A DNA stretch of 64,000 bases, taken from assembly GCA_041652815.1 (NCBI GenBank), contig JBAZGN010000002.1:77570-141569 (forward strand), read 5' to 3'. The translations under genes were made by a program, and so were the position numbers. Positions 6,001 to 39,000 of the stretch are shown here, piece after piece. Positions within the stretch are counted from its first letter, which is position 1; each line of letters begins with the position of its first letter. Below the pieces are notes generated by a model. The model was not told the DNA's origin and did no database searches. It worked only from the letters and a program-made list of their open reading frames with translations. The DNA comes from Candidatus Omnitrophota bacterium. Lineage in GTDB: Bacteria; Omnitrophota; Gorgyraeia; Duberdicusellales; 4484-171.

Positions 6001-9000
6001 ATTTTATACAATTTTTGCTCGATAACATAGTTTTCAAAACTATGCCTATTTATTATATGACCAAAGGCGCAGCAAGAATTTTGCGTGAAAACGAAAAACA
6101 TAGCGCCTTAGGATTTATTTTGGAGAAAGTAGATGATTTGATTGGCGAGTGGGAAAAGAAATGGAAAATTAAATTTAGCTCCGAAGAAAGAGTTGAAATA
6201 AAGAAGATAATTTCCGATTTATATGAAGAGGCGTTAAGAATAGTATGCGAAGAAAAAAATCTTGACTATACGCAGTTAAGGAGAGAATTTCCTGATATCG
6301 GCCAACGGGCAGTAGGTATATTTAAAATGTGCGCTTCTTCTTCCATAAGCTCACCGTTTACCGGCACAGCAGTAGCGGCCTTGAGCGATGAAAAAGGGTT
6401 TGCGTCTTCGCCATTAGCGGGAAGTTCGAGCGACGCAGAGAAAAGAACGCGGAATTTGAAATTTGCGTTAGGTTTATTATGTAAAAGCGGCGATTGGCGC
6501 AAGGCGGTTGAAGTTATAAATGAAATTGGCGAACTCAAATCGCCCGTTGCAATCACAGAAATAATACGTATTCTTTACCGGGATGATTTAGAAATATTGC
6601 ATCAGGATGCTGTTGCGGCTCTTCACAAAATTGATGTTTCAAAGCTTTCCGCCAAACACTACCGTTTTATCGTCACATTAATTTCCGGATTGATACGCAA
6701 CAGAATTTCCGGCAGCAATTTCGTCGGCATAGACCCGCTTTCCAAAGATTTATTTGAATTATTATGCCATACCACTCGTTCATGGAGCGATATCGAAACT
6801 TTCAGTAATTGGATGCTTACGCGGATAAATATGGTTTCCTACTTTGCGGACGAATATTCACAATCGATGTACATTATGTATTATATGGTTGAAACAGCCA
6901 AAATGTTTGCTGAGCCGGCAGCCGTAGAACTGGTTGTTAAAATCAAAGATAAAGCAGTAAAGTTCAGAAGTTATTTATCTGCCACAAAAATTGTCCGCAA
7001 ACACCGGCTGATTGAAAAGTTAGACGGCCTTATTGATTATGCCGATAGAGTATTAACTTATTTAGAGGCTGTGCCGTTTAACCCGGATAAATTGCAACAG
7101 GTATCTTCGCCCATAGGCAGAAGAGAAGTAGAAAGAATAAGAGGGCTGATTGAAAGAGTTGATGCCCTTGCTGCAGAAGTGAATAAATTAGCATGGGATT
7201 TTTCTCCCGCCGGCAACGAGCACACAATGCTTTCTACGAGAGGTCAGCAATTAATGAGCTTTGGGGAGATAGTCAGGAGCTCGGACACTCTCGACGAAAA
7301 ATATTTTGACTTTTTTAACATTTGGGAAAATTTATTATCTTGTTGGATGAATTTCTTATCCAGGCGTGTACGTAACTCACACGAGGCAGCTTTTAAGAAA
7401 GCAGAAAAAATGCTTCGTTTGAAAATTATCCCGGGATTTGAAGAAGCAATCAAGATGTGGCTGTTTACGAGCGAAGATTATTTAGGCAGATTTTATTTGG
7501 ATTTAGCCATTGTTAGGTTGGAAGAAGCAGAACGTTGCATAGACGAGTCGCAAGGAAAAATTCTCCTGCACAGAGAAGCTATAAGCCGTAGATTCAGACG
7601 GCATCATCTAAGTAATTTAGGAAGCAGCAGATACGAATTGGCAAAATTTGATAATCGCGTTGCTGATTTAGAAAAAATTAAAGCCGAAATAATTAGCGTC
7701 AACGATGAATTAGAACGTTGTCGTTCTGCAGGGTTTCTCGAGAATTTACCTGTAATTATTTCTTCATATCGAAGAGTTAAAAGAATAGCCGGGTTAATTA
7801 ATAGTGTAACAGTAAACGCGTTTTTAAGGATATGTTTATTCGAAAGAGGAAGCCTTATTTCCAGGGCAGAAGCCGACTTGGATGCAATAATAAAAACCGC
7901 CGCTTCAACCTCCAGCCCCCTCATAACCGGCACTTTCCGCACCCAACTTGGCATATTATCCGAAGCAATTGTTATAGATAACGTATTAATAAATACTTTT
8001 TCTTCATCGCCGGTGAGGAATATTTCTAATGGCATCCCTCGTTCCATGAACGCTTTTTTAAAAGAAGCGTTTACGCGTTATGAAAACGAAGGCGCTGCAT
8101 GGGCGAATAACTTTCTTTATCAGAATCATGAAGCCGGAGTATTTGCTGACGGAAGGTCTGCGCGGTCATTTCTTGAAGCAGTAAAAGTTATTACTGCTGT
8201 TGGTGAGCCGGATATGAGAGCCGGTGCAAAATGGATACTTTCTTTAAAGAATTTGCCCGATATCTTAAGCATGCTTAAGCCGGGAGAGCAGGATTGGCTT
8301 AATTATGCCTTAGGCATCGCTTCTCGGCTTGAGCATAACCTTCAGCCATTAAATGTTTGCAAACATAATGGTGACCTGAATAGTGCTTTAAAAAATTGTT
8401 CCTTTCTCTCTGGCGATGAAGGAAAAGTGACGGTTTCAAAATCAGATCCTTTCCACGTTACCCTATGTTATAAGAAAATCCCTGATTTTAAAGGAAAACT
8501 GTATCTTAGGTTAAAGGCTGGTAATAATAAAGAAGAAATTTTGCTTTTTGAAAATGCCAAAAATTATTCAGCAAACAATTCAGAATGCTACATTTGGCAG
8601 ATTGCCCCTTCAGCTTACGATGGATTCCTGGAATTCGATTTCATAATGTTAGATGAATACGGGTCATTTTCTTTATTGATAGACCGCAGAAGATTTAATT
8701 ACATAAATAAGATATCTCCCTTAAGTATACCTATGTTGGGAGTAAATTATCAAGCCGCGGATAGATTAAAAGAAACAAATGTGGTTGCTTATGCGATGGA
8801 AGCTGCTCTTCTGATGCAAACCCTTTCTGGAACCATGGGAGGCGGTTTAGGAATTTTGATGGGAAGTTTTTTACGGGCTTTAAGGTATTCAGGCGCCAAT
8901 GTTTATTTTCCGCTTCTAAGATACGCCAAAGGGATTGAGCAACGCGTAGCAGACGGCAAGCCCCAGGTAGTAAAAGGCGTCAGTTTGGATTATTCGGTTT

Positions 9001-12000
9001 TGGATAATTATGAAGACGAGTTTGAGCGATGGGAGAAAATAAAAGAAGCGGGGATTACGGTAAAAGTAGAAAACAAAGAATACAAAACAAGAGTATCTTT
9101 AGTTCGATTAACGGTTAAGGTAGATAAAGGCACGCCCGATTCTTACATATTATTTATTGATATACCTGAAAATTCTGATATAGCCTCAAATCTTTATCCG
9201 GGGAAACCAACCTCAAAAGAGCGTTTTAGGCAAGCAGCCTATTATTCACGCGCTACATTGGAAGCATTAAAAACTTTAGGTATCAAGCCGGATATATTGC
9301 AAGTCCATGAGTCGTTTCCGGCAGTAGCACTGGTTCCCGATTTGTTTTCCAATGAACATTCGCCTTACGCAAATGATAACTATTTTGACGGCGCAAAAAG
9401 AAATATTTTAGGTTTTTGCCATAGTATCGCCGCCCAAACAATGCCATGGATATTCCCTGGCTATATGGAGCAGATATTGGGTTATTCTCTGCCGGAGGAG
9501 TTGCTTACTACGCGAAAAGCCGACAGTAAGACATACAGAGTTTATGACCCGTTTCACGCTTTAAGCGTGAAAGCAAAAGCTATCGGCACAGTCGGCTTGG
9601 AACACCTTAACGCCATGCAAAGGCTTTTTCCTATGTTTGCGGATAAATATTTTGCGATAGAAGACTCAATCTGGCCTTATTTCTGGATGTTACCTGAACA
9701 AATTGCCAATAAAGGGAGAGTTCTTAGTTTAGAAGATATCTGGCAGGCTAAAGAAAAGACTGAAGCCAGGATGATTGGTTATATAGAGGGCCTATGCGGA
9801 GTAAAGCTCATAGCCGGAAGGCCTACGATAGTTGAAGCTCGGAGAATAGCTGATTTTAAAGACACCCTATTTTTTACCGGCCTTCCGGGAATAATTCTTT
9901 CCGGACAGTTATTATCAGGTATTTATTATCTAACCGCTGCAGTTGAAGAAGGTGGGCTTGGATTTAATCTTGTTTGCGCCGGGAAAGCTCACGAAGACGA
10001 TGAATTAGGGCAAGCCTGGGAAGGAAAACTAAGAGAATTTTCCGATGATCCGCGGCTTAAAGGAACATATGTGTATTTACCCTGGACGACCAACATTTCG
10101 AGGCCCATTATTCAGGGGGCTAAAGTATGTTTGCAAACATCAGTTCCTCCATACGAAGCCGCAGGGATGAAAGATAAAAAAGACATGCTTTGTTATAATG
10201 TGGTAGTTTCAAGTTATACCGGAGGGCCGATACAGCAGATTACCAATGTTTTATACAATAAAGCTGTTGAATATTGGAGAATCTTGAAAGGAAATTCATT
10301 GACAAAGATTATAAGTTTTCTGCTTTGGTTTTTTGGAATAGACCGAGAAAAATATCATCTTGGCAACGGATATCTATTTGAGCCTTTTAGCCAAGCTAAG
10401 CTGCAGGAGTGTATGGAAGACTTATCTGCGCGTTTTTACGCTTATATATACTATAAACAGGAAATAGCCCCGGAACAGGTAAAATCTCCCAATGAACATT
10501 GGTTAAAATTAACTCGCCGCTATATGAAAGAGGATCCAAGTGGGATATTGCAGATTATGCAAAATACTGCAAGGATGCTGCCAGTCTTTGATTCTCGTAC
10601 AGCCGCTTTAAAATTTGCAGCCATCTGGGCTTTTATGCAGGGAGAGCGTTTGGATTATTCGGGTTATGATGAATTCTTGAGAAAAGCTTTAGCAGATTTT
10701 GAAGAAAGGTTATCGCCGAGCTTTAAAGGAGAATTTGCCGCTAATGGTACGGCAAGTTCTTCCGCGCTTGAGGAAACTCGCCATGCAAGGCGCATTGATA
10801 AAATTAAAAATTTTGGCAGGAATATATCTTCCCCAATTAAGGCAGGGTTTTTTGACATTGACGGGGTGCTTTTAAGAAGCCCGCCAAAAGAAGAAAGATA
10901 TACAAGATTAGCCTTATCTTTACAAAAACTTGGGCTAAAAAGCGTTAGCGTTGAAGAACTTCACGAAGCTATTTTTGCCAATGAGGATAATGGTCAACGT
11001 AAGTTAAAGCTTTTGTGCGGGGATATAACCGAAGCTGAATTTATTGCCCAGATAAATCATAACCTAAGGAATCTTGGCTTAAGAACAGATTTAAGCCCCA
11101 AAGAGTTTTACGGGATGTTTTTCAGCGATAGAATGCCGAATTGGCAATTACTCGAACTTTTACTAATAATGAAGGCGTTAGAAATGCCAAGAGGCATTAT
11201 TTCTGACCGCCTTCCGCAAGACGCAGCAATAATGATGGGAAAAGTAAAAGGAGGTTTCCCGAAATTATTTAAAAACCACCGCCTTATTTTCCATTCATAC
11301 GAACATCATCACACAAAACACGAGGTTGAGTTTTTCAATCTGGCCGCCAAAGTATTATATGAACAATTTGGCATTACGCCACAAGAAACTTTCTTTGTTG
11401 ACGATAAGAAATCTATTATTGAAATAGCAAAACAAGCCGGTTTTCAAGCCATTCATTATGCTTTTAACGATAAGATTCCTCCGGAACTCATTCACCCTAT
11501 TTTTAAAGAAATTCTTGGTATGGCTGTTTCCAGCCCCATTTCAAAAGCAAATGTTCAGGTTGAGTTTGTTCCCGCAGATAAAAAATATGCTGGCATACAT
11601 TCTTTATATCAAGTTTTTGCTGTATCCCTTGAAGGGGGTTATGGAGTTACTGTTCGTTGCGGTATACCACATCCTTTTCTCCCGGGTGAATTTCAACCAT
11701 CCTGCGGTGAGATTAGATTTATAAAGGTAAGCAAAGAAGATTTTCCTACAGCAAAGCCCCAGGCACGTATCGACGCCGAAACTAGGGCAATTGAGGTAGA
11801 CCGCACTTCTGATTTGGGTAACATTGCCAGAAGAGGCGCTGCCACGGTTGTTGTTTCAGACGGCACAAGGCCTAAAACCGATATTTTAGAAGAATGGGCT
11901 TCTGCTTTAGCAAAGAAATCACTATTAGGCTGGGAATATACGCCGATAATAGGTTCCGGGATTGAGGAAGAAGATATGTGGACTATTGCAAACAGCGCTT

Positions 12001-15000
12001 ATAAAGTTTACGCTGCCGGTATCCGCCGCAAGGACATTAAAGAATATGTCGAAGAAGAAATTCCCCACTTGCCCTTAGAAACTTCCGGCCACGTAAAGCG
12101 TAATGAGCGCATAAAAGAGATACAAAAACTTTTGCGTGAAAAAAGGTGGCATGAAGTTCCTGCCGAACTTTTTAAAAACACAAAAGGGGCAATTCCGGCG
12201 GCGGGATGCCCTGAAGACAAAGGCGGTTACCCTCCGCATACCTGGGATCTTCTTACCGCTGGTTTTATTTCCGGTTTAAGGGTTTTATTCTGGTGGGCAG
12301 GAGAGAACGGTGATAAGCTTTGCCTGCCGCACACACTGAAAAATTCCAGTTCCGATAAAGAACCTTTAGGCAAAAAACCCTCACGTTTTATTTTTGATGG
12401 CGCAGATAGAAAAACGGGGCGCCCATTAATTCGCGGCATTATGAACCGTTTCTATGAAGATGTGGCTATCGCTGGTATAAGCCAAAAAGATAGGGGCGTT
12501 TACAGGCCTTACGGATTGCCGATGCGAGTGTTACGCTACTACCTTAGCCGCATGAAACAGGACGAGGAGGGGTCTTTAGTGAATAGTTTTAAGGGGCAGT
12601 GCCAGCTAACTTTTCATAATGAGCTTTTATATCAAACTACAGATGTCCTTGTTCTTGCCGACCGCAAGCGTAGATTTACCGATGAAGACATTGAACTTAT
12701 CAATGCGACCGTAGTTATGGAAGTTGTTCCGGGCGTATTGAGTTTAGACCAGATAAAAAGATTGGGCGAACGGGGAATATTTTATGTTTCTTCGATGTGG
12801 CTGCATTTGGCAACTCTTTATGCGGCCAGGGAAGAGTGGTTGCATCGTTTGGTAGCAAGGGAACGCCAGCATGTTAAAGATATGCGTACCCACGTTGTAA
12901 GCGTAATAGAAGGATTAGCAGCAGCGCTTATGTTTGAGGAATTAGACCGCTGTGAAAAAATTGGAGTTGCTTCCATACATTTAAAGGCTTGGACGGTCGG
13001 CAGGGAATTAGCAGCTACCATACAAAAAAATAGGGTATTACTATGGAAGGAAATTTCGAATTTTGCCGCAGAGTATGGCCTAAATTTAGAAGATTTAGTC
13101 CAACCAAAAAATAGTTCGCGTATTGCAATGCAGAGGATTGCGGTGTCGGAGGATAAGCAGTGCCAGCTAACTTTTCATGCAGTCTTACCTGTTTTAGAGC
13201 GCGTTTCAACATACCTTGACCAGGGAAGAAATCCTACTTTAGCCTGGGTGAGCGCGGTTTCAGAAGTAGCCTGGCAAAGCGCCATTTATAATGATAGATC
13301 TTTTGGCCGTTCAATTAGAGCATTAGAACGCCCAAATGAGATTCCAAAAGATATAGTTGGCGCTGTTAAGGCTGAAGTAGCTGCTTGGCACTTGCGCTGG
13401 TTAAAGCCGAACAATCCGGAGGTAGTTAGGCAGTTGCTGGAAATTTTGGACCACGAAGGCTCACATTATTTGAAGAGAAATTGCGTTCATACGTTAGGCG
13501 CGCTTTATTGGATAGTAGATGCGAATGTCCGGAAGGAAATTGTCGCCGGCAGTATTCTTGAATCTCCCCGCGAAGGATCATTGGGAGGATTAGTTTCTGC
13601 TTTGCTTGGCCCCGCTGATGTCCATGAATGGGCAAGGTGGGCGCTTTCTATCACTTACGTATCCTTACGGGATACCAGAAATGTTCTTAAGGCTGCGGCA
13701 GATGGCTACTTAAAATCGGAATACTTAGATGAGCAAGCAAAATATCGTTCCTACGAAATGGTTGGCAAGTTATACCGCGCTCTTGCTGCAATTGATGATT
13801 ATTTTGGGAAAGATGACGATGCTAATGATTGCCGCTTTAAGGCATTAAAATATTATCATAAGTCTATGGCGGAACAATATGGCCAGGGGGCTCTATACTG
13901 CCAATTAGAAGGGGCACGAAGCTATCATCAGGCTAATAATCCTCAAGAAGCTAGTAAAAGATATCTCTCTTTGATTGTGCCGTCCAGGCTGACAAGGACA
14001 TGGAGAGAAAGAGGCGCTAGGACAGGCAGGGCGAGCATAGTAGAGATAGATTTATGGGTAAGCGGCATACGCACATTAGCCTTAGCAGGAATTTTGAATA
14101 TATATTCTCCATACCATCCTGACGAGAATATGCTGATAGCTACGAGGCTAAATGAAGTGATTTCTGAGCTAAATTATTATTTTAGAGAAAAAATACGTGA
14201 GCGAAAAACTAAATTAGAAGCAATATTCGCCCATCAGGCAGCAGACCTTGCACAGTTTAATGTTCCATACTTAGGGATTTTGCTTATCTTAAGCACGGGT
14301 ATATTTAGAGATGGGGAGAAGATTAGCAGTATTTTTAAGGAAATGATAGAACGACAATCGTTAATTGATGGAAGTGAGCCTATATCTTCGGAGAAACTCC
14401 GAGCTTCCATGGATACCAAAGAGCGCCCTTTCGATAGTTTAAGGCCGGGCGAAAAGATGCTTATTGAGCATATTTTTACTGGCTTGAAACTCATTGATCC
14501 CAACGCCGCACCTCACAAGGCTTCCTCAGCGCTTACCTTTAGGGAGGTTTTAAGAGAATTAGGGAATTTAGATGATCGGGAAGCTATGAAAGAATGGGCC
14601 AGCGAGCATGCCTTATTTCTGCCTTTACCTTTTAGAGGTTTTTACCCCTATCAAAGGCTTATTATTGATTATTTTTATAATGACCGGAATTGGCAAAATC
14701 CGGAAAAAGTTTTAGCTGGCATCCGTAATAGTAACGAATGGCCGCTCGGCCCGATTAGAAATTTTATTATAGCTTATGGAAATACAACAAGCATAATGCA
14801 AGAGGTATGGCAATTTATAAATAGAATACCGGTGGGAAAGCATGCGTATGTGCAACAAAGAAATTTTCTTATTGACAGGTTGCCAGGATACCCAATACCA
14901 AACAACATGTCTGCTTTCGAATGGGCGGTGCGAGGGTTTTGCGAAAGCTTATCAATTTATAACGGCAAGCAATTGCTTTTTGGCGCGCAGGATATAAGTG

Positions 15001-18000
15001 GCATGACATTTCCTGATTTGCCTATCTGGCCGATAGATAATTGTGGCAATGTTTTAGAAGATAGAATTCAATGGATGGCAGAAAGAGGCAGGGCGCCGCC
15101 ATTAGAATATTACCAAGAAAGAAAAGTCTCGCTTAAAGAATTTTGGCCAGAGCTATATTCTCCGAAACGCCAACTAACCCTGTTTGAAGGTATATCGGCT
15201 CAATCAATTCCGCACGTAAGCCATTCTGAAGGAGAACACTCGTCAAAGCATACTGTAGCGCCGGATTCCCGGCAACTCACTTTGCCGTTTGCCGGCTCAT
15301 CTCCTTTGAGAAATGGTATGGCTCCTCAAGCACAAAGAGCACAATTAATTCAATCTATCATCAATGTCTTCAGTTTAGGTGAAGCCCTGGTTTTAACGTC
15401 TGAAGAAATTGAAACTGCTATAAGAATAGATACCACCAATGATGCTTACCGGATTGCAAACAATTTGCCGATTGTTATTGCGTTGCACGGCGAAATTTTT
15501 AAGAATTGCCCTCTTGATGTAAAACCGTTGTTAATGGTTTTTACAGGAAGAGGCGTGGTAGACGATAAAGCGCTTATTTTTGACGATCGAAGTTCCCAGG
15601 GCCTTGCCCTTGAGGGAAGCCGTTTAAGTAATTCTATGGAAATAAAGAACGCCATTTGGGAAATAGCTTATCACGGCAAAAAAACTACTTTTATTCTACA
15701 GAATCATGATAACTGGTTGGGTATGCCTGTGCTTTACGGGCCGGAGGATATTTATCTTAAAGGGCTGCTGATGGGCAAAGGAGGAGACAGAATTACCCGT
15801 CTTGGGATTGAAATTGCGAAGAAAGAAGGCGTAGCTGACGAAGACAAAATATTTGAAGAATATACCCAGGCGATGGTTGTAGCCCGGCTCTTAGGTTTTG
15901 CCATATTAGACGGCCCGGATATGATGCGCGATGTAGACAGGCGTATGGGGATTATGGTAAGAGCTGCTCGAAAAACTGCTCATGACATTAATTTATTTGC
16001 CGCCGAAAATCCTGATTATCCTGAAATTGACGAGAAAGAAGTTCTAAAAGCTACGACTTCTAATCCCAAAGAAGAAGGCGGATTTCCTCATACGGAATGG
16101 ATGGTAACTTCCGGCGGTGTAGTGCAGGGAACTGTCACTGCGCTACGTTGGTTACAGCATGTTTCAGATGCGCCTCAAGATAGATACATAGAGCCGGTAG
16201 TTGAATTTGTCAGGAATCTTAATATTGACTTTGAAAATGCAACCAGCCTTATCCAGGGGTTCGGTGACGTAGGCAGCGGTAATGCCAAGCTGCTCTTAAC
16301 TATTTTTGAAAAGTTTAAAATAGGTATACGCGGTATTTCCAATAAATATTTTGCTCTCTATCGTAAAGCCGGCCTCTCAAGAGAATTCCTGCTTAGCGCA
16401 AGGGAAGTTGCTGAAGAAAGTCCCGATAAGCTTACCGTAAGAAAAATCCTGGATTTGGCTGATTTGTATAATGATTTAAGCGGTGCGACAATTTGGATAG
16501 CCAATCCTGTTAGTAAAACTGCAAATTTAGCTGTTTATAGCCCCGAAGAAATCGCTGATTTAACTGCGCAATTTCTCGTAAGAGGCATTCAAGCTGTTTT
16601 CGGAGAAGCTTCAATCGTTGATGAACTTATTTATCAAGAAGCAACCATACTTTTCCCGGCAGCCGGGCCAAACCTTATCAAGGAAGCTGCGCAAATCGGG
16701 CGTTTAAGGGCCCCCATTATTGCCGAAGGCGCCAATAACGCAATTACGCAAGAGCTGCAGCCGCAGCTGCGCAAAAGCGGCATACTTTACCTCCCCGGCG
16801 AGCTTTTAAACGGCGGAGGAATCAGCACTTCTCAACAAGACAACCGGCACAATCATATTGATGGTACAGAAGCAATAGTACATAACCAGACTTATTATCG
16901 TATTCATGTTACCGATGAAATTGATAGTTTAGTTTTGCACAGGACAATTGCTTTCTTAGAGCGCTGGACAGAAAGCCGCGCAAATTTTGCATTGGAATTG
17001 GCTGAACATGTGCGTATTGTTGCCAGAGGTATTTTTACGCGGGCTGACGCATTAGTGCGCACAGAAGACGGTGATCTTATGCATTTTACCGCAATAGACC
17101 AGGAGCGTACCAAAGACCCGCATACGGGTATACCCAGATTACCGCGCCGGCATTCCCTTTATGAAATTGCGATAGAAATGGCGCCGGTAGGCATTCTTTA
17201 TCGCCCCCAGGAAGTTGCAATGTATTTAGAAGAACTTAGGCAATTGGCGTTTGATGTTAGAGAAGATGGCCGTCTCAATAACTATGCTATTTGCAAATTG
17301 AGATTTCGCCTTTTCGTGCTTATGAAAATGAGTTATTTCTTAAGCGCTGGCCAGCAGGCTGCCTTGATAGATATTCTGTTTAACATAATATCTAACAATG
17401 GCTTAGACGATATTGTCAGAAAAGAAGCAATGGTTTGTTTGGCGATGGCGCTTAAATGGAAACAGCAGGCGCATCAAGAAGATATTCAAAGAGCTGAAAG
17501 GCTTTATAGGACTATATTGGCTGACCCTTCAGAGCCAACCCGCCTCAATGTCTGGGCGCAATATTCGCTCTACCGGCTTATGGGTATTGGGTATCTTGAG
17601 GAAGCGAGAAATGGTATGTTTCCAGACTTTACGCAAGGAAAGGGTTGGGTTAGTTCACCGGTGGAGTGGGGTTGGGTTAATGGGGAATGCTTGCAATTTA
17701 ACGGTAAAGAAGGGTTGCTGATTCCGGGTGAAGTTGGTATCGGCAAAAGTACTCTTGCTATACAAATAATAAGAAAAGATCCGCGTTGGAAAGTTGTTGG
17801 TTGCGGTGCAAGTTACATCGGAGTTGATTATTTCGGCGCAAAGCCTGCGCTTTTAGCTAAATCAATAAGCCGCGGCAATATTATATTTTCCAGGCTTTTA
17901 GGAAACATACCTGTAACTATGGCTGGGAAAAATCCAGTAAGAGTAGATTTAATAGTTGCTTTAGATGAAATAGGCATTGAGATTCTTGGTCGCTGGGAAA

Positions 18001-30000: not shown

Positions 30001-33000
30001 GTTTAACCCAAAAGGGAGAATTGTTTGAGGAAGGTTCTGAATGTAAAGCCGAAATTTCTCAAGACGATAAAATAAAAGCCAAAGCTATGCTACTGGGGAT
30101 GAATTTAACTCTTTTTAACCGTTATCTTTTTATTAATCGGCCGCAGTTTAGCAACGAACTGATGCTTTTAGCCGGAGTTCCGGTTGGCGCTACACTTTCT
30201 GCCGGCAGAGGACAAGAACTGCGAGAGCCATTGTTTTTCCCCGGCGACAAAAAGACGTATGTAAATGGCGAAGAAGGTTTAAAACACCTTTATTTTGAAC
30301 GCCGAATTGATTTTACCGAGTTTTTAGGCGTTGAAGGTGTTGAAGGGCTTATCGCTTTTGCCGGTAATAACAAGAAGTGTGCACGGTTAGTATACGAAAT
30401 GACAAAAGCAATGGCAATATTCCCTAATTTAATAGCTTTGCTTTCTATAGAAGATGAATTAGCTATAGCCGATAAAGAAGGGATTAATTTGGATGAAATT
30501 ATGGAGCGTGGTGAACGAGAAGGTTATGGAAAATATTATAAATGGCAAGAAAGAGGACAAATCGGATTTAGCGTTACTCCGCATATCATTTCTGCAGCTT
30601 TGGCTGACCAGAAAGGTTTAGTTGAAGAAAGTGAAGGCTCACGCTGGGGAGTTTATCCGATGAAGCGGCCTCAGGATGTAGACAACCAGATTATTATGGC
30701 TAAAGAACATTGCCGCAAAGTGTATGGGCAACAGACTATGCGTTGGATATGGAATGCTGAAGGCAATATGGACAGGGTATTTGCTGAGTTACTTGCTAAG
30801 CATGGTGTACAGTTAGCTTATGCCGGCAGTGAATATTTTGAGGAAAAAGTAAAACCAGCTAATGGCATGCAGGTTTTTAACCGGATGCAGCCGGTTATTT
30901 TTCAAAGAGGTGTTTACCGAAATAAAGTGTTGCGTTTATTCGGAAACTTTGATAATTCCTGGAAAAAGTTTTTTGAAAACCCCGATAATCCCGATACGCA
31001 AGGCCGTATTCAATTTAAAAGAGGTGCTGAGCAGTTACAGCTTTTCCAAAAATTTATTTTGCAGCCTCACGGCATGCTCGATAATCACCGTCGGCATAGC
31101 CTTTTCAGGCTTTGGCAGCAGGATGCTATGGGCTTGATTTTATGCCCCTATTCCCAGGATGATAAGTATGTAGATTTTAAAGCAGCCGGAAATACCAGGG
31201 CTCAAGCCGCGGTAATGGCAACTCATATTTACGGATGTTGCGATATGCCTATTTCTTATGACAGTGCTAGCTTTGGCTGCTCGCAAACTCTAAAAATTAT
31301 AACTGAATTCACCGATATGGAAAATTGTGTTCAAAAACTTGACGAAACATCAATGGTTTGGCTAAGAATGATAGCCGCAGTGATTAATGCTGACGTAGCA
31401 GAAGTTATGACCAGCGGCGAGGTCATTAATTTAGTTCATAGCTTACAGCGCCAAGGCGAGCCTAACTTAGCACGGATAACGCAACTACCTTTAGGCACTT
31501 GGCATCCGCGCGGAAGCACCCGTGATTGGATTGGAGGTTGTGATGAGCATTGGTGGCTTTATGATTATTTAGATATGACAATAAGAGCATTAGAACAGGC
31601 AGGTTTGCCCAATTGGCGTGCGCAAGGCGCAACCGAAGATACAAACCATATCTGGGAAAAAGGAATTTTCTTAGGTGCAGAGGTAAGTTGTTTTGCCTGG
31701 CACCTTGTGCGGGGAGATGGAAAACAACAGGATCCGATAGCTTTTACGGAGCTTTTCTTCAGACACTTAGCCTGGACAATAGAACAAGCATGGGAGATGG
31801 GATATGCGGTTGTCCCGCCTTTGGTTAATGGAGGAAAGCCTGGATTCAGGATGGTTGTAGAAGGGAAAGAAATTATAGTCTTACTAAAAGTTAAAGGGCA
31901 AATCGCCAAAAAAGCTGCATTAAAAGCGCACGAAGAAGAGATAGAGTTTCCGCGTTTAGGTCATACACGAGAATCAAGAAGAAAAGTCAGGCAAGCACTT
32001 TTAGCTATTTCTGCTATATATGATGCTTGTGCAGAAATATTGCAGAGACCGGGGCCGCAATTATATAAGAATATGTTTGAGGGGGAGGAATTAAATTCAC
32101 AAGATAGAGAAAGCATCCAAGAGATGCAGGCTTTGGATGCAAATTTAGCCGGATTTTTGCGCCAAGATTGGCAAAACCACGATAGTACAATTGCCAGTCA
32201 CATTGCCCAAAGAGATGATGTGACTTTGGCGGCTTGGATGACTAATGCCCCCAGAAGTTTTATTGAGTTAGCAGCGGCAGCGCATATGATTTCGGGCGCG
32301 CAACCGGAAGCACCAGCTATCCGGAATAAATTTAAGACCTTCTTTGAAGAGGTACGCAACAATGCTGAACGCCAAAAAGCTTTAGGCGTTTTAGCGGGAG
32401 AGCTATTCCGCCTTATAGAAGAAGAGATAGCGCAGGGTGATGGTATAGAAGGATACCGCCGCGCCATGGAAGAAGTAGCCGTATTATTAGGTCCGCGGTT
32501 TGCGCCGGCATTAGAGATAGCGCTTATTAAATGTAATGGCGATGCCTCAAAATTAGCAGAACTATTCAACTCACTAAATATCCAGCAGTTTAGAGAGCTA
32601 TTAGACGCGGCTTTAGGCAATTCGAGCTCTCCGGTAGAATCTTTGAGTTTACGTGAGCTTACCGCCCGAAGTTTGATTGTTATATTAGACTCAGAGGCTA
32701 AAGAAGGCCGTTTCGGTTTCTTACGCAGGTTATTAGGTGAAGCTTATTTGCCGATGGACAGGCTAATGTTGCTTTCGCCGGAAAAAATCATTCCTACGCT
32801 TGCCGATAGTATCCGCGGCGTTGCTAAATTGATAGATAAAAATTCTCCGCAAGGAATTCAATTACCGAAATTATTCAATTATGCAGAACAATTCGGACTG
32901 CAAATTGAAGAAAATAACTGTCCTCATAATGTAGCCGCTACAGAGTTTCCTAAGGCTGAAGGCGCTGTAAAAAACAGCCAGGGTATTCCTTTGCAGATTT

Positions 33001-36000
33001 GCCCGCCGCAGATTACTGAACGCGGGGTATTATTTAGAGTCTATGCGCCGGGAGTAATGTGGATTTCCGTGGTTGGTGATTTCTTTAAGGCAATTAAAAG
33101 AAAAGATGTTTCCTGGGGTTGGGACCCGGCGCAATTTTCTATGCACAGGAATGACGGCGATATTTGGGAAATAACCATTCCTCTTGAACCGTCAGATGAT
33201 GCATATGAATACCGCTATGCCGTTGCAGTTGAAGGCAGAGGCGGCTGGGATGAAATTAGACCGGCTGCGGATGTTAATTTCCGGCTCAAAGTTACTACCC
33301 CTTATGTGCCGGGCACTACCGAACTGCCACCATCTATTAAACCGGGTTCAAGAATCTATGAATTATTTTTGCGGGTATTTGGCAATTTCGGCCCTAAAGA
33401 GCATATGGAAGAAGGAATAGACATAACTTCCCAGCGTTTAGGAAAGGACGATTTTGATATAGCTCAAATAATGCCGGTGCATCCAGTAGGCATAGAGCAG
33501 AGAAAAGGCGAACCCGGCTCTCCTTATGCGGTTAGGAACGATTTTCAAATCCAGAGTATAGAAACTGTACCCGGCGGATATTTTGGCGAAGAAGGGTTGC
33601 TGTATTTAATCCAGAGTTTAAAAAGTCAGGGAATATTGCCAATATTCGATGTAGCGCTTAATCATACTTCGCCCGACCATTTTCTCATTGGCCTTGTTCC
33701 TCAGATGTGGGTAAGAATTGCCAACTGGGCAGTCCAGCCGAATGAAACTTTTTCTGATATAAGGCAGCTTAATCCTTTGAATTTAGCTATGCGCGATTTT
33801 TCACTTGTATATTTAGCCTGGTTAATTACCCGTTTCGGCGCAAGAGGTTTTCGCTGTGACCTGGCTGAATTCTTACCGATAAGTTTTTGGCAGGAATTGT
33901 TTACAGTCTTAGAGAGATTTGAAGTTTGGTTTTATCCCGACCGGGAAGGCGGCAACGGCTTGCTAAAAATTATGGAAGGGGGATATCTCTACGACCAGGA
34001 AAAAGACAGGGATGATTTAAGATACATCGGGGAAGGCAGGTTTAACTGCGCTTATGGAGTGAGGTTTATGAATGTGGTGGATTATTGTATTAAGGAGCGT
34101 TTGACCGCTTTGGATTTAATTGAAGCAGTGAAAGAACAACAGGCTTTCGGCGGAGCTTCTCTTCTGCAGTTAAGCAATCATGATTGGAGCGCCACAACAG
34201 CAACCGCTGTCCGTTTAGGCAAGCATTTACGTTCCTTTGCCTTTTTCCAGGAAACCGTAGGCGGACCTAAGAATTTAACGTTGACTTTCAGCGGCGATGA
34301 ATATGCTTACCCGTACGCTATCGGCCATATCGGGTTGCATCATTTAAATTTGGAAGCCGGCGACGTGGAATATCATAAATGGCTGCTAAATCTTTTAGCT
34401 CACACCAGAGCGCAGGAATTGGCGGATTTTAAAGCAATCCAACCCGTATTCTTAACCGATAAATTTTCTAAAGAAGACAATAAACGCTGTGTAGTTGCTT
34501 ATTCCAAAACTGCTCAAGACAGAACGTTATATTATTTATTTATCGCCAGAGAGAACGAAGAGCGCTGGGTTCCGGTTGGCGAGCTTATCGGAAGAGAGCT
34601 CACTGGCAATGAAGTTTTTTATGATATAACCGGCGGCAAGGCTCTTGAGCGAGGCGCTCAAATTTGCCAAGGCAAAACCCCGGGCGAAAATAAAGAATTT
34701 ATTATCCTTAAGCCCGGCGCGCCGCTTATGCTTGAGGTAAGATCAAAACAAGGACAAGCTACAAGTTCACCCGTGAAAGTTATAGCTAATAATAGAATTG
34801 AGTTTATAGATCGGTTGCGGCAGGATAACAGGAGGAGCCTCTTCCGTGGCTGGTTGGACCCTCTTGCTGCCGCAGCCGCTATATATATAGGTAAGAGAGG
34901 AGGTTTTGTTCTATCTCCTTTTGAGAAATATTTTGTTATCTCCGGTAAAAACCACGCCCCACCTACGCACTACGCGCTTCCTTCTTCGTTGAAACTCCGC
35001 AGGACAGGCTGGCGGACAAGCCCGCCTGCTGTTTCTTCACCTACTCTTGAGACCAAATTAGAAATCGCATTAGCTACAAACGAAGTTGATAGTAATCCAA
35101 GTTTAGTAATTCCATATTTGGGAGATTGGATTAAAGAGAAACGTTGGTTCATAGATAAAGAAACAACTATTTTAAGCCTTGAAGTAGCCGATACCTTTTT
35201 CTTTTTAAACGATAAACGTTTACAGGGTGCAGTTGTGCAATTCGAATTAAGAGACCCGGAAGGAGCAGTTTTTACAAAACGTTATTTTATACCGGTAATT
35301 ATTTCTATACAACCCGTCGAAACTGTTCCTAAAGCTGATCTGATAAGCGTTACACTCAACGATGGCCAACGTTATTTTTGCTTAGCCGAAAACACTATTA
35401 TTTATCAACGTGCCGTGGTTCAGCTATATCAAAGTAGAGGCTCGCTTAGAACAGACAACGGTGCAGTTATCACTTTTGAATCAATAGAGAAAAATGTCGC
35501 CGCTATCGATGTTAATTCCTTAGGAGTTGAACTGTTAGGTTTGCGTGAACCTTCAAGTAATGCTTTAGTACCGGTTACTGCCAACGAGGACAGGCTAATG
35601 AGCAAAACATATAAAGATATGAGAGGCGATGGTTTTCCTCCTAATTTTGAAGCGCCACGATATCAAGCTTTAGCCCAGGCAGGTTATCCTTATATACCGC
35701 ATATATACGGCACAGCGTATTACACATTAAGCGGTTCAGAGAATATTCCTTTGCATGCTCTTATGGAGGGAATTCAAAAAGAAAATCAAGTTGGATACGT
35801 TTTTTATCGTTCGCTAATAGATATCTTTAATCTTTTTGATACTACCCAGCCTTCTGATTGCCATCAAAGGTATCAAGATAAAATTTTCGCTATTGTTTAC
35901 TTTGCTTATGAACTCGGAAAAACAATCGCCCGCATGCATGCGGCATTTCTATCGAGTGATAGGCCAGATTTTCAGGCAGTATGCGCGGGTAGCAATGATT

Positions 36001-39000
36001 TTCAGAAATGGTCTGGGTTAACCAAGCATAATTTTTCAGAAGCGATGGCAACTTTATGCAACAGGGTTCAACGCGGAACACAATTGGAAGTATTAGCAGA
36101 ATTAGTTAGAAGGCTTGAACAAGTATCACCAGTGGTTATGGATACAATTTCCGGATTCAGGAAGCTTGAGGGTACAATAATGAAAGCGCAGGGCCATGGT
36201 GATTTGCATACTGACCAGGGGTTGATTAAAACTTCAGAATTTTCCCCGTTGATAGAGGCATTTATGGATGCGGTAAATAATGGCGATAAAGCTCAAGCTC
36301 AAAACTTAGCTTGTAATCTTGCTTCAATGGTGCGCTGGCTTGATTTTGAAGGCGTACCGGCAAAAGATAAGGTTGGGCCGGATTATGATTCGCGTTTAAA
36401 CCCATTAGCGGATTTAGCCGGCAGTATCGGAGGAGTCAGGTTTATGCTTCATGTGGTGACAATGCATGACCGTCTTGGTTTACGGCGGGAGAATATTCAA
36501 CATCATGAGGCACAGCGAAAAGCTTCGCTGGTGCTTTCCGGGCAGATACCTGCAGAAGAAACAGCGATACCAGGATTAACTAGCCCGATGATTGATATTT
36601 TCCATATTTGGTTGAACGATATCACTGAATATTTTATCGAAGGATATCTTGAAGAAGTCGAAACTTTAGGCACAGAGGGAAGTATTTTAAAGAAGTGGAA
36701 CAGGGCTCAAGCCAAATCCCTGGTTTATTTCTGGAGTTTTGCAAGGACTATTCATGAATTGCGTTACGAAACCTATGCAAGAGATTGGGGTTGGGAGGGT
36801 ATACCGGCAGGTAATTTGTTGCAGATAATGCATTTACGAAATTTTGCTGGTTTATTGGAAAATGGTTCTTCTCCCGTTGAGGTATATTCCCTGCCTAAAG
36901 CCTCAAGGTCATTCTTGGGTATGCGCACTTTTGGATTAGCTGCGCCTATTTCATACTGGCGAAGTGATTTTGATTTGGGAACGGGGGATTTGGATGGATA
37001 TTTAAAACTTGTTAAATTTTATAAAATGGTAGGAGTCTCTATAGGGTCAAACTTGCCTTTAAATATACCGTTAAGTGATAATTGCCCGTATAACAATGCC
37101 AGCGCCTATATGATGGACCCTGTTTATATTGGAATAAATATGCTTTTAGATTATTTAGGGGTTAATGGCGAAAATGCCCAAAAATATCCTCGCATATTAG
37201 AATTGGTTAATTTAATAAGCGAAGACTATGGCCCGATATTAAGAGCCAAGGCTAAAGCCACTAATTCTTTAACCAGGCAGTTGAAATATTGGGTTTTTCA
37301 ACCGCTTTTTGAGGCATTCAGGGATAATGAATTGCAGCAAGAAGCTTCTTTGATTGCCGATTTCATTATTAATTCCGATACGGATTTAGCTGTAGATAGA
37401 GGAAGCGGGCTCGCCAGAAATTTTAAAAATTACTGTTTACGTAACCCATGGCTGGGAGACCATCTTTTGTTTTTCGTTTTGGCAGATAAATTTAAGAGTT
37501 ATGATTTTAGGCGCTGGCCTAAAGAATTTGCCACACGGAATGCCGCAACAATTACCCAGGCTAAAGTAACATACCAGCAGGATATTATGCTGGGGGCTTT
37601 TCTGCAGTGGATTCTGGCTGAACAGATACTTGAAATAAGAAGGGTTTCCGGCGAGGGAGATTCTGTAGTCGACCATATGTTTGATAAACCTTTTAGCTTT
37701 GGGGCTGCTGATGTTTGGTGTAACTTAGAAGCATTCTTAATTGACCCGGTAACTTTAAAACTGCCATATACACAAGGTGTGCCTCCGCACAGGCTTGATA
37801 TCCCCCAGCATTGGCAATTTTATCTTCTTAATATAAGAAATCCAGCTGCAAAACGCCTGTTGCTTGACCGGTTACGTTTTATGCTGCAATTTTGCGACAT
37901 TTTACGTATTGACCACCTTATCGGATATTACCGCCTTTATCATATGAGCGAAGACCCAGGGTGGGAGATGACTTTAGAGAATCTGGGCATTTGGGCAAGA
38001 GTGCAGGAAATTATGAATAGCAATATGGATGCGGCTGGCAAGCGTTATTGGATTTTTGATGCCATTATCGCCGCCATAAAACAGCATTTTCCTCAAGATG
38101 TTGTAGCCCAGGTTTTCGATGCCAACGGATTTATGCATCATGCCCATACGGTATTAGCTGCCCGTAAGTCTTATGACTTTGCCCAGTGGAATGCACAGAC
38201 CGGCTGGTACAAACAACATTCTTCCGAGCACAGGCAAGATTTACTTTACTGCATGCTTAATCCCAGCGAATACGGCAGCGTGGATTATCTTGAGAAAATT
38301 ATCCAGGAAAATAACGATAAAGGAATGTTTTTGCAGCCGACAGATAGTATACGGGTTTGTTTCTTTAGCCCGGGATTGGGAGAAGAAATAGTATCTGAAT
38401 TCATGCAAATTGCTCAAGAGCAGGGAAAAGCGTTGGTTTTTGAGGATTTAGGAGTTGTGCCGGATAAGCTTGCTCATTCTTTATGGCAGTTACGAGCGAA
38501 GCGTTTTCGAGAACTTTATTTTGGTTATAAACATTTCTTAGGCGACACCAATCCTTATTGGTTTGACCAGATAAAATCTCACGATTTCGCCTGCTTTTGT
38601 TCCCCGGACAGAGTAACCGCTAAAGGTTGGTGGGAAGGAACTGGTCCTCTTTCGCTCCAGAAGTTTTATTTTGCGAGAGATGAGCAAAGACAAAAGGCAC
38701 AAAAGAAACCTATAATCAATTGGCTTAACGACCACGGATACCTGCCTTTAGATTTAGCGCCTATAAATGTTGTTGAGGGAGTGCTTACTTCAGTAGCTGA
38801 TTCCGATGCCCAAGAAGTGGTGGAATTGGCTCCAAACATATTTGATTCCGGAGATGAGGGTATAATTAATTTGCCGGGCTATCTTGATATGTGGACCGCC
38901 CGGGCACCGGTAACAGTGGAAGATTTAATTTATGAAGCCGGCAATCAAAATGAGCCTCGTAACGCAATTGCCGCAAAAGCAGTTAGGCGCATAAGACGTC

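Follow-up and report, generated by a model that had tools for sequence, protein, structure and literature searches.

The 64,000-nucleotide stretch analyzed here (contig JBAZGN010000002.1, positions 77,570 to 141,569, of assembly GCA_041652815.1 from a Candidatus Omnitrophota bacterium; hereafter the window) lies wholly within one gene of more than 64 kb, since frame 3 of the + strand lacks any stop codon from nt 3 to 63998 (21,332 codons) and is open at both window ends. In the remaining five frames, 768-1,859 stops per frame were counted. We consider it rather likely that this is a giant multi-enzyme gene of ~60 whole-enzyme cassettes joined at Ser-Ser-Pro (SSP) tripeptides, four of which would act on alpha-1,4-glucan or maltose, with an operon-like co-expression of all units. 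These four are a phosphorylase-like relative of family GT35, a CBM48-GH13 amylase, a maltokinase-like (Mak-like) module, and a long-type GH77 4-alpha-glucanotransferase. The open reading frame (ORF), the four cassettes, and the SSP sites that delimit them are as follows.

nt 3..63998, + strand: giant ORF, internal part, >21,332 aa; stop-free frame, open at both ends
nt 8004..8012, + strand: SSP (aa 2668) opening the GT35-like cassette; homology to the related giant ORF L004 runs from aa 2667, and L004 has an SSP at the matching position 3095
nt 8004..10826, + strand: GT35-like (alpha-glucan-family phosphorylase-like) cassette, aa 2668-3608, from SSP to SSP; TIGR02094, profile against PDB, hhalign
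nt 10827..10835, + strand: SSP between the GT35-like and the next HAD cassette (aa 3609); the HAD motif FFDIDGVL follows a few residues later
nt 32625 (aa 10875) and nt 35034 (aa 11678), + strand: further SSP sites, at the starts of the GH13 and Mak-like cassettes
nt 32625..34763, + strand: CBM48 + GH13 cassette, aa 10875-11587; Pfam CBM_48, PDB 4gkl_A, alignment with 12 relatives, AlphaFold2, Foldseek
nt 34764..34772, + strand: SSP after the GH13 cassette (aa 11588); motif scan
nt 35034..36866, + strand: maltokinase-like (Mak/Pep2-type kinase) cassette, aa 11678-12288; TIGR02457, weak Mak_N_cap, stand-alone homologues
nt 36867..36875, + strand: SSP between the Mak-like and GH77 cassettes (aa 12289), at the stop/start codon overlap of the unfused operon in contigs L024, L025, and L026
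nt 36867..39431, + strand: long-type GH77 4-alpha-glucanotransferase cassette, aa 12289-13143; Pfam GH77, stand-alone homologues
nt 39432..39440, + strand: SSP two residues past the end of GH77 homology at aa 13142 (aa 13144)

Ser-Ser-Pro junctions in a giant reading frame

GC content (0.39-0.45) and the positive GC skew are both uniform along the window. Pfam and NCBIfam scans of the translation matched ~30 distinct, unrelated enzyme or regulatory families, each present in no more than 2-3 copies, including radical SAM/SPASM, two HAD phosphatases, a nucleoside hydrolase, an HD domain, a Glu/Leu/Phe/Val dehydrogenase, a cupin, B12-radical SAM, MutS domain V, a SEC-C motif, a Ser/Thr kinase, methyltransferases, an EEP nuclease/phosphatase, a GDSL lipase, HATPase_c, and sigma-70 regions 1.2 and 2. 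Thus, two statements of the original prediction, a model's reading of the DNA letters, were confirmed: the enzymes are co-linear on one polypeptide, as given by the uninterrupted frame, and unrelated domains are interspersed among them. With >21,332 aa, above the 10,000 aa of the class definition, and many distinct enzyme Pfams, none dominant by copy number, the ORF falls into the multi-enzyme class of Nielsen & Lui (10.64898/2026.06.07.730766).

The 21,332 residues contain no convincing transmembrane segment. The top 19-residue Kyte-Doolittle mean was 1.9, none reaching 2.0, and the eight Kyte-Doolittle windows above 1.6 either include charged residues or are located inside globular domains. 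Hydropathy and Pfam together revealed no transmembrane helix, SecA-like domain, or N-terminal peptidase in the window, only the SEC-C motif, while the ORF extends past both ends, where such elements could still be encoded. The lack of transmembrane segments, combined with modules depending on ATP, S-adenosylmethionine, B12, Fe-S clusters, and NAD(P), points to a cytoplasmic setting.

SSP is the strongest tripeptide outlier of the translation, with 59 occurrences observed versus 3.9 +/- 2.0 in composition shuffles (maximum 11; z 28.9), and follows the consensus [G/A/S/V]-S-S-P-[V/A/L/I]. None of the 59 sites lies inside a domain envelope, whereas 15.6 would be expected there because the 25 envelopes cover 26% of the length (binomial ~1e-8). 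SSP brackets every alpha-glucan cassette, and many sites fall within a few residues of module ends; for instance, the second HAD domain begins 3 residues after SSP 3609 and the protein kinase 13 residues after SSP 15263. Furthermore, SSP location matches the start and stop codons of stand-alone homologues. The motif makes use of each of the six Ser and four Pro codons, and its flanking DNA is unconserved, which argues that selection on SSP acts at the peptide level; on the same grounds, a DNA-level origin of the motif, such as a recombination site, was ruled out. We regard SSP as a candidate inter-cassette delimiter or processing site.

The cassettes also behave as units. In an all-against-all comparison, alignments between paralogous cassettes of the window extend from one SSP to the next, and the HAD cassettes c1159-1391 (nt 3477-4175) and c3609-3842 (nt 10827-11528), 41.9% identical end to end, represent a duplication of a whole cassette. 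The pairs c15623-15901/c16323-16596 and c14560-15119/c15902-16322 are likewise paralogous. Outside the window, SSP enrichment recurs in the related giant ORFs L004 (24 observed, 1.5 expected), L017, L014, L011, and L007, in all of which SSP sites flank the GT35-like module, with complete sequence divergence beyond them. As only this subset of the related giant ORFs is SSP-enriched, the junction motif is lineage-specific. No alternative delimiter tripeptide was evident in the SSP-poor relatives, only a mild enrichment of SSS, and SSP is not enriched in stand-alone GH77s.

Four alpha-glucan cassettes and their relatives

CBM48-GH13, Mak-like, and GH77 are consecutive units (nt 32625-39431). The GT35-like unit precedes them by ~7,300 residues, a distance filled by roughly 20 unrelated cassettes. 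The cassettes measure 941 (GT35-like), 713 (CBM48-GH13), 611 (Mak-like), and 855 aa (GH77).

The GT35-like module matches neither Pfam Phosphorylase (PF00343) nor DUF3417 (PF11897), its sole Pfam match being a weak one to Glyco_transf_5 (PF08323, 22.8-26.5 bits). In NCBIfam, it matches TIGR02094, 'alpha-glucan family phosphorylase', at E 9e-16 and with 57.7 bits versus a cutoff of 191.7. We built a family profile from the window and 14 relatives from genome contigs (15 sequences). All 47 matches of this profile in PDB at E <= 1 are GT35 phosphorylases and none is GT5, the top match being 9l6i_A (E 7.8e-15) with both halves covered. In hhalign, the family aligned with the TIGR02094-type GlgP of contig L024 at 98.4% probability over 446 columns, and with GlgA of the same contig at 42% over 60 columns. 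The profile-PDB search and hhalign thus ruled out a GT5 (starch synthase) identity for the module at nt 8838, which was the only one suggested by Pfam. Taken together, these comparisons identify the module as a GT35 relative, very divergent and below all curated cutoffs.

The residues at the expected phosphorylase positions include a GGLG loop (aa 2947-2950), His3140, Arg3280/3281, Lys3286, GKAH (aa 3327-3330), and EAAGMKDKK with Lys3393 (nt 10179-10181); the GGLG loop, H-T/S, ARRxxDxK, GKAH, and EAAGMxDKK are invariant in the family. Lys3393, conserved in all 15 family members, aligns with the Lys of 'EASGTSGEK' in 9l6i, and Arg3280/3281 and Lys3286 align with 'RRFATYK'. We take Arg3280/3281, Lys3286, and Lys3393 to be the equivalents of rabbit muscle phosphorylase Arg569, Lys574, and Lys680, the latter binding pyridoxal phosphate (PLP). 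With regard to TIGR02094 and 9l6i, the homology is collinear in both halves, with GGLG, HT, ARRxxxxK, GKAH, and E-x-x-G-x4-K kept, whereas the window module differs by an identity of only ~25%, a score below the curated cutoff, and EAAGM in place of EASGT. In addition, it carries ~220 conserved upstream residues and a conserved C-terminal helical tail, both without family assignment. An insertion of ~31 residues (nt ~10254-10356, aa ~3418-3451) follows the putative PLP-Lys region; it is absent from most relatives, similar in L004, and shorter in four relatives.

The CBM48 of the second cassette scores 32.0 bits against PF02922 (cutoff 22.4) at nt 33021-33221 (aa 11007-11073), directly N-terminal to the GH13 barrel, and its beta-sandwich is visible as an N-domain in the AlphaFold2 model. 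The GH13 catalytic and C domains span ~nt 33354-34682. Although the Pfam score of the barrel (PF00128, 12.6 bits) is below the gathering threshold of 22, phmmer against PDB returned 4gkl_A at E 3e-18, also 3dhu_A, and, weakly, GlgE chains. The model, computed from 50 sequences (predicted local distance difference test, pLDDT, 77.7; predicted template modeling score, pTM, 0.82), gave 4GKL as the top Foldseek match (E 4e-26, target-normalised TM-score 0.79), followed by 3DHU and then CBM48-bearing branching enzymes; all 50 matches listed are GH13 enzymes. The catalytic residues are Asp11286 (nt 33858), Glu11325 (nt 33975), and Asp11394 (nt 34182), and all seven invariants of regions I-IV are kept in an alignment of 13 sequences (Asp11216/His11221, Arg11284/Asp11286, Glu11325, His11393/Asp11394). 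A first HMMER pairwise alignment had indicated loss of the acid/base Glu; this was overturned by the multiple alignment, which resolves the region into a 6-residue insertion and the conserved Glu11325.

The best sequence and fold matches of the GH13 catalytic domain are Thermotoga neapolitana AmyB (4GKL, 'noncanonic maltogenic alpha-amylase') and a Lactobacillus plantarum amylase (3DHU), which share the catalytic residues. In contrast to these, the window GH13, with ~19% identity in the structural alignment, adds the N-terminal CBM48 and the 6-residue insertion before the catalytic Glu. NCBIfam GlgB models cover residues 17-90 only, that is, the CBM48, at E >= 1e-3. Because GlgB models match the CBM48 alone, and small AmyB/3DHU-type amylases come nearest in both sequence and fold, a GlgB or GlgX identity was ruled out. 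An HMMER search of the library found two close relatives, each a fragment of another very long ORF, and ~190 further small GH13 amylases at E <= 1e-10 and roughly 30% identity. Upstream of the CBM48, ~570 residues (nt 31311-33020, aa ~10437-11006) show conservation with P0022/L003, which over the final ~340 extends to P0023, and gave no Pfam, NCBIfam, or PDB sequence match. A domain without family match thus travels with CBM48-GH13, and the SSP at aa 10875 falls within this conserved stretch.

Between GH13 and GH77 lies the Mak-like module of ~610-630 aa, overlooked in the original prediction, whose homology to stand-alone genes starts at aa 11656. Its best NCBIfam match is TIGR02457 'putative maltokinase' (TreS_Cterm; E 1e-18, 67.4 bits vs a cutoff of 375), covering positions 32-396 of 529 (365), and the next is glucosamine kinase; Pfam Mak_N_cap reaches 15.4 bits versus a cutoff of 22. 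A PDB sequence search with this region gave no match. The module contains HGDLHTDQ (aa 12065-12072) and DFEG (aa 12114-12117), both identical in the stand-alone L024 homologue, which we take to be the Mak catalytic motifs, namely the HGDxHxxQ/N catalytic loop and the metal-binding DFE/DFG. The position of a GH13 immediately N-terminal to the Mak-like module, the TIGR02457 match, and the weak GlgE matches in PDB are reminiscent of the TreS-Mak (Pep2) fusions and the GlgE pathway. However, the window GH13 is of the AmyB/3DHU type with CBM48 and not TreS or GlgE, the TIGR02457 score is far under the cutoff, and no GlgE-type maltosyltransferase was identified in the window.

The GH77 module scores 142.6 bits against PF02446 (cutoff 25; E 2.3e-41) and E 1.2e-41 against NCBIfam NF011081, the latter under the cutoff of that equivalog. 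The module proper occupies nt 36885-39428. Its catalytic triad comprises Asp12637 in RIDH (nt 37911), Glu12814 in FEDLG (nt 38442), and Asp12869 in SPD (nt 38607); the three columns are invariant when aligned with 9 relatives, among them canonical ~500-aa enzymes, and an alignment with the Thermus enzyme places RIDH and EDLG on the known GH77 sites. The cassette is 45-51% identical over its full length to stand-alone 4-alpha-glucanotransferases of ~840 aa; for instance, residues 4-847 of the Desulfonema magnum GH77 (848 aa) align to aa 12295-13142 at 49.5% identity. This long subfamily has an insertion of ~130 residues between nucleophile and acid/base and a C-terminal extension of ~130 residues.

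An ordinary operon accounts for the order of the last two cassettes. Stand-alone homologues of the Mak-like module exist in the metagenome contigs L024, L025, and L026, with 35-41% identity (full length in L025 and L026), and residues 6-655 of one such gene (662 aa) align to aa 11656-12285. In all three contigs, the Mak-like gene (~660 aa) is located directly upstream of, and overlaps, a stand-alone long GH77 gene (~850 aa). Beyond this pair, L024 (3-9434) and L026 (6424-16974) contain a GH13 on the opposite strand, a TIGR02094-type GlgP, and GlgA, while L025 (2295-6832) shows the Mak-like and GH77 pair only. Together with the D. magnum GH77, these unfused sediment clusters represent the same families in the same Mak-to-GH77 order, with 35-51% identity over full length. 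They differ from the window in that the genes are separate, Mak and GH77 overlap by a few bases, no SSP junction is present, and the GH13 of the cluster is only remotely related to that of the giant. Since the stand-alone homologues are adjacent in all three contigs, the Mak-GH77 pair represents an in-frame fusion, across ~10 junction residues, of a two-gene operon found unfused in sediment bacteria.

Compared with the original prediction, most of the family assignments hold. Its notion of enzymes that are normally encoded separately is supported by L024 and L026, which carry Mak-like, GH77, GH13, GlgP, and GlgA as neighboring genes, and the motifs it quoted lie where it placed them (the phosphorylase motif at nt 8838, NHTSPDH at nt 33660, and GFRCDLAEF at nt 33846). 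A phosphorylase-like segment had been proposed for 8700-10330; TIGR02094, the PDB profile, and hhalign agree on the family, but the conserved module is larger (~nt 8004-10826). Likewise, the GH77 with three boxes at 37085-38468 is correct in family and triad and too narrow in range, as the third Asp at nt 38607 lies outside. The CBM48+GH13 module was corroborated by Pfam CBM48, 4gkl_A, and the invariants of regions I-IV, whereas its naming as glgX or glgB failed, the catalytic domain being closest to small AmyB/3DHU-type amylases. A check of the catalytic residues found the Asp/Glu/Asp sets of GH13 and GH77 and the aligned GT35 Lys3393 present. The description as a 'full' glycogen toolkit goes too far: the window contains no synthase, branching, or debranching enzyme. 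By Pfam or NCBIfam, no GT5 synthase, GlgB, GlgX/GDE, GlgC, or PGM was detected in the window, beyond which the ORF runs on.

Relatives of the GT35-like module were found only inside other giant ORFs. In the databases, they are partial proteins, and several carry names derived from Omnitrophica/Omnitrophota metagenome-assembled genomes (MAGs). Within a collection of GTDB species, the module was found at 16 loci, mostly labelled Omnitrophota, with a few labelled Planctomycetia or Gastranaerophilales, and nearly all are stop-free throughout the stretch examined (up to 21.8 kb). These relatives are 36-56% identical, and the flanks outside the ~900-residue module are mostly unrelated between loci. 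In L002 (2494-11814), it lies upstream of a response regulator, GH77, the glycogen-debranching GDE_N/GDE_C, and HATPase; in L007 (4862-5725), a genuine GT5 (PF08323, E 1e-41) comes directly after it, across an SSP; in L014, a second weak PF08323-matching module follows. P0023 has two GH13 modules and a CBM48. Alpha-glucan enzymes are thus recurrent in Omnitrophota giant ORFs, in varying combinations. Frame switches with overlapping open stretches were noted in L001 (~nt 6921-7032), L002 (~nt 2494-2552), and L009 (~nt 7211-7368, 9813-9904); assembly or sequencing errors and real frameshifts are both possible.

Co-expression, release, or tethering of the cassettes

In the arrangement we propose, ~60 whole-enzyme cassettes would follow each other head to tail, with almost no linker and a conserved SSP junction. 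The GT35-like unit would convert glucan and inorganic phosphate to glucose-1-phosphate in a PLP-dependent manner, the CBM48-AmyB-type GH13 may bind glycogen or maltodextrin and release maltose by hydrolysis, the Mak-like unit would form maltose-1-phosphate from maltose and ATP, and the long-type GH77 would disproportionate maltooligosaccharides. The consecutive trio would then represent a coherent chemistry of CBM48-targeted maltose release, maltose phosphorylation, and disproportionation, to which the distant GT35-like unit may add phosphorolysis. Encoded by a single ORF, all units would be obligatorily co-expressed, resembling an operon written as one protein. Because the cassettes equal full-length stand-alone enzymes and keep their catalytic residues, each of them is probably an autonomous enzyme. 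Moreover, the alpha-glucan cassettes are probably active, as their catalytic residues are kept and the modules are conserved without stops. Conversely, the four alpha-glucan enzymes do not seem to constitute one conserved assembly, since the GT35-like unit lies so far from the others and its flanks differ entirely in relatives.

Several observations weigh against this interpretation. Three modules (GT35-like, GH13, and Mak-like) do not reach the curated family cutoffs, so that their specificities may differ from their names. The PLP motif is altered (EAAGMKDKK vs EASGTxxxK, with Ser and Thr substituted), and an AlphaFold2 model of the GT35-like cassette from a 6-sequence alignment was unusable (pLDDT 50.1, pTM 0.37). 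In GH77, a Pro (CSPD) replaces the usual His before the third catalytic Asp, where most relatives have THD or IHD and two have TQD. Some multi-enzyme giants are predicted to be outward-facing according to Nielsen & Lui 2026 (10.64898/2026.06.07.730766). Finally, many other related giant ORFs lack SSP enrichment, and no protease domain was found in the window, both of which also speak against cleavage at SSP.

How the cassettes are deployed can be pictured in several ways. One possibility, which we regard as open to serious consideration though short of probable, is a processed polyprotein: a protease would cut at SSP to yield ~60 ordinary-sized enzymes, and the fusion would be an expression strategy only. 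The tripeptide is conserved, apparently under peptide-level selection, placed at module boundaries, and preceded by small residues at -1; cassette sizes equal those of stand-alone enzymes, with SSP at the positions of their start and stop codons; and cassettes duplicate and shuffle as SSP-to-SSP units. Cleavage has in fact been proposed by West-Roberts et al., who give the cleavage points as unknown (10.1101/2023.11.21.568195). Besides the two objections named above, Ser-Pro might just as well be phosphorylated or glycosylated or act as a structural domain breaker, and several SSP pairs are only 4-33 residues apart. By analogy only, viral and other polyproteins also combine many autonomous enzymes in one ORF with a short conserved junction motif, whereas the present case is bacterial and comprises ~60 units, with no protease identified. 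In a somewhat broader form, which we advance tentatively, the gene would be a bacterial polyprotein or 'cassette array' in which SSP delimits the units that are gained, lost, or duplicated and, at the same time, serves as a recognition site for processing or junction-specific modification. A metabolon or channelling scaffold, in which tethered enzymes pass maltooligosaccharides, maltose, maltose-1-phosphate, and glucan ends between active sites, seems unlikely to us. It would suit the consecutive CBM48-GH13, Mak-like, and GH77 units with their near-zero linkers and plausibly sequential chemistry, the joint recurrence of alpha-glucan modules in other giant ORFs, and the existence of bifunctional GlgX/MalQ and TreS-Mak fusions as NCBIfam families. 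Nevertheless, the GT35-like unit is ~7,300 residues off and has different neighbors in every relative, and the Mak-GH77 adjacency is inherited from an operon. SSP also joins HAD, kinase, MutS, and sigma-70 modules, and because the same tripeptide connects functionally unrelated enzymes, the fusion mechanism appears to be generic and not pathway-specific. The enzymes would yield small, diffusible sugars, the polymer they act on already forms a scaffold, and what is seen is co-linearity alone, with no positive evidence for substrate channelling.

Two further explanations concern the purpose of the enzymes. Quite unlikely, in our view, is a prey- or host-directed effector, where the protein or its released cassettes would be delivered to the archaeal or bacterial host of predatory or episymbiotic Omnitrophota to mobilize host glycogen. 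In Chlamydia, for example, glycogen enzymes are secreted into the inclusion. Such a role would fit the enzymes of the window, which serve catabolism or remodelling and include neither a synthase nor a branching enzyme. Moreover, the literature ties Omnitrophota giants to predation and attachment (PMC10066038; 10.1101/2023.11.21.568195), and peptides of one giant ORF are up ~3-fold in attached cells (PMC10066038). However, the window has no secretion signal, transmembrane segment, or adhesion domain, and the sigma-70, MutS, radical-SAM, and B12 modules require a cytoplasm and cofactor supply. The pairing of the phosphorylase-like cassette with a true glycogen synthase in L007 rather suits endogenous storage metabolism, and Omnitrophota MAGs have themselves been reported to encode glycogen synthesis (PMC8542988). 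We find it very improbable that the cassettes are decaying cargo, gene copies that were captured by an expanding ORF, persist in it as passengers, and have lost their function as enzymes: although three of the four modules are below curated family thresholds and the GT35-like flanks are not conserved between genomes, the 64 kb lack any stop, all catalytic residues tested are kept, and the window modules are 36-60% identical across many MAGs, again without stops. All in all, co-expression, possibly combined with proteolytic release, explains the SSP-delimited cassettes no less well than a scaffold would, and we lean slightly towards release or functional independence of the cassettes over tethering.

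Omnitrophota giant proteins

Apart from the alpha-glucan cassettes, the ORF includes housekeeping-type modules that are not expected in a multi-enzyme protein, namely sigma-70 region 1.2 plus region 2 (nt 60759-61067, aa 20253-20355; Pfam E 1.3e-14), MutS domain V (nt ~42396-42731), and the SEC-C zinc motif (nt ~43725). Two weak matches below threshold, which may be due to chance, concern a SidJ-related pseudokinase (NCBIfam E 6.5e-5, nt ~27690-28268, aa 9230-9422) and Effector-associated domain 4 (Pfam E 1.6e-3, nt ~63741-63821).

Giant ORFs of Omnitrophota were found to be common and poorly annotated by Seymour et al. (PMC10066038), and giant sugar-themed multi-enzyme proteins of this phylum are already described in two preprints. 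West-Roberts et al. 2023 report 'Archaeovorins' rich in 'GT5' and GT1, speculating on glycogen and proposing cleavage (10.1101/2023.11.21.568195). Nielsen & Lui 2026 define a 'multi-enzyme metabolic cluster' class with a sugar-metabolism Pfam module (PF08323, GT1, PGM, ROK), whose location and function are left open (10.64898/2026.06.07.730766). The window shares with these proteins a stop-free giant ORF of many enzyme families, the sugar theme, radical SAM, HAD, methyltransferase, HATPase, and kinase modules, and relatives in Omnitrophota MAGs. In contrast, GH77, CBM48-GH13, and maltokinase, present here, are not mentioned in the portions of both preprints that were consulted; the PF08323-matching module is GT35-like in our case, and the 21,332 residues have no transmembrane helix. 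A junction motif was likewise not found under the terms cleavage, linker, and motif in the texts of West-Roberts et al. or Nielsen & Lui, nor did a library search on Omnitrophota polyproteins bring up the SSP delimiter. To these accounts, the window adds the GT35 instead of GT5 identity of this module, the operon-derived Mak-GH77 fusion beside a CBM48-AmyB-type GH13, and the SSP delimiter.

These observations bear on a puzzle of the Omnitrophota giants: do they work as a megadalton chain or are they cut up, on which side of the membrane do they reside, and why do they contain housekeeping-type enzymes? The alpha-glucan modules in the window are whole and apparently active, and the Mak-GH77 pair goes back to an ordinary operon. 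Furthermore, the 'starch synthase (GT5)' Pfam label, widely reported in surveys, stands here for a phosphorylase-like GT35 relative. The SSP delimiter renders the question of cleavage testable by proteomics, and offers a practical segmentation for structure prediction. If the polyprotein interpretation is true, SSP would represent the missing 'cleavage points' of Omnitrophota giants, and one translation product would replace transcriptional operons. Every such giant could then be parsed computationally into its functional units.

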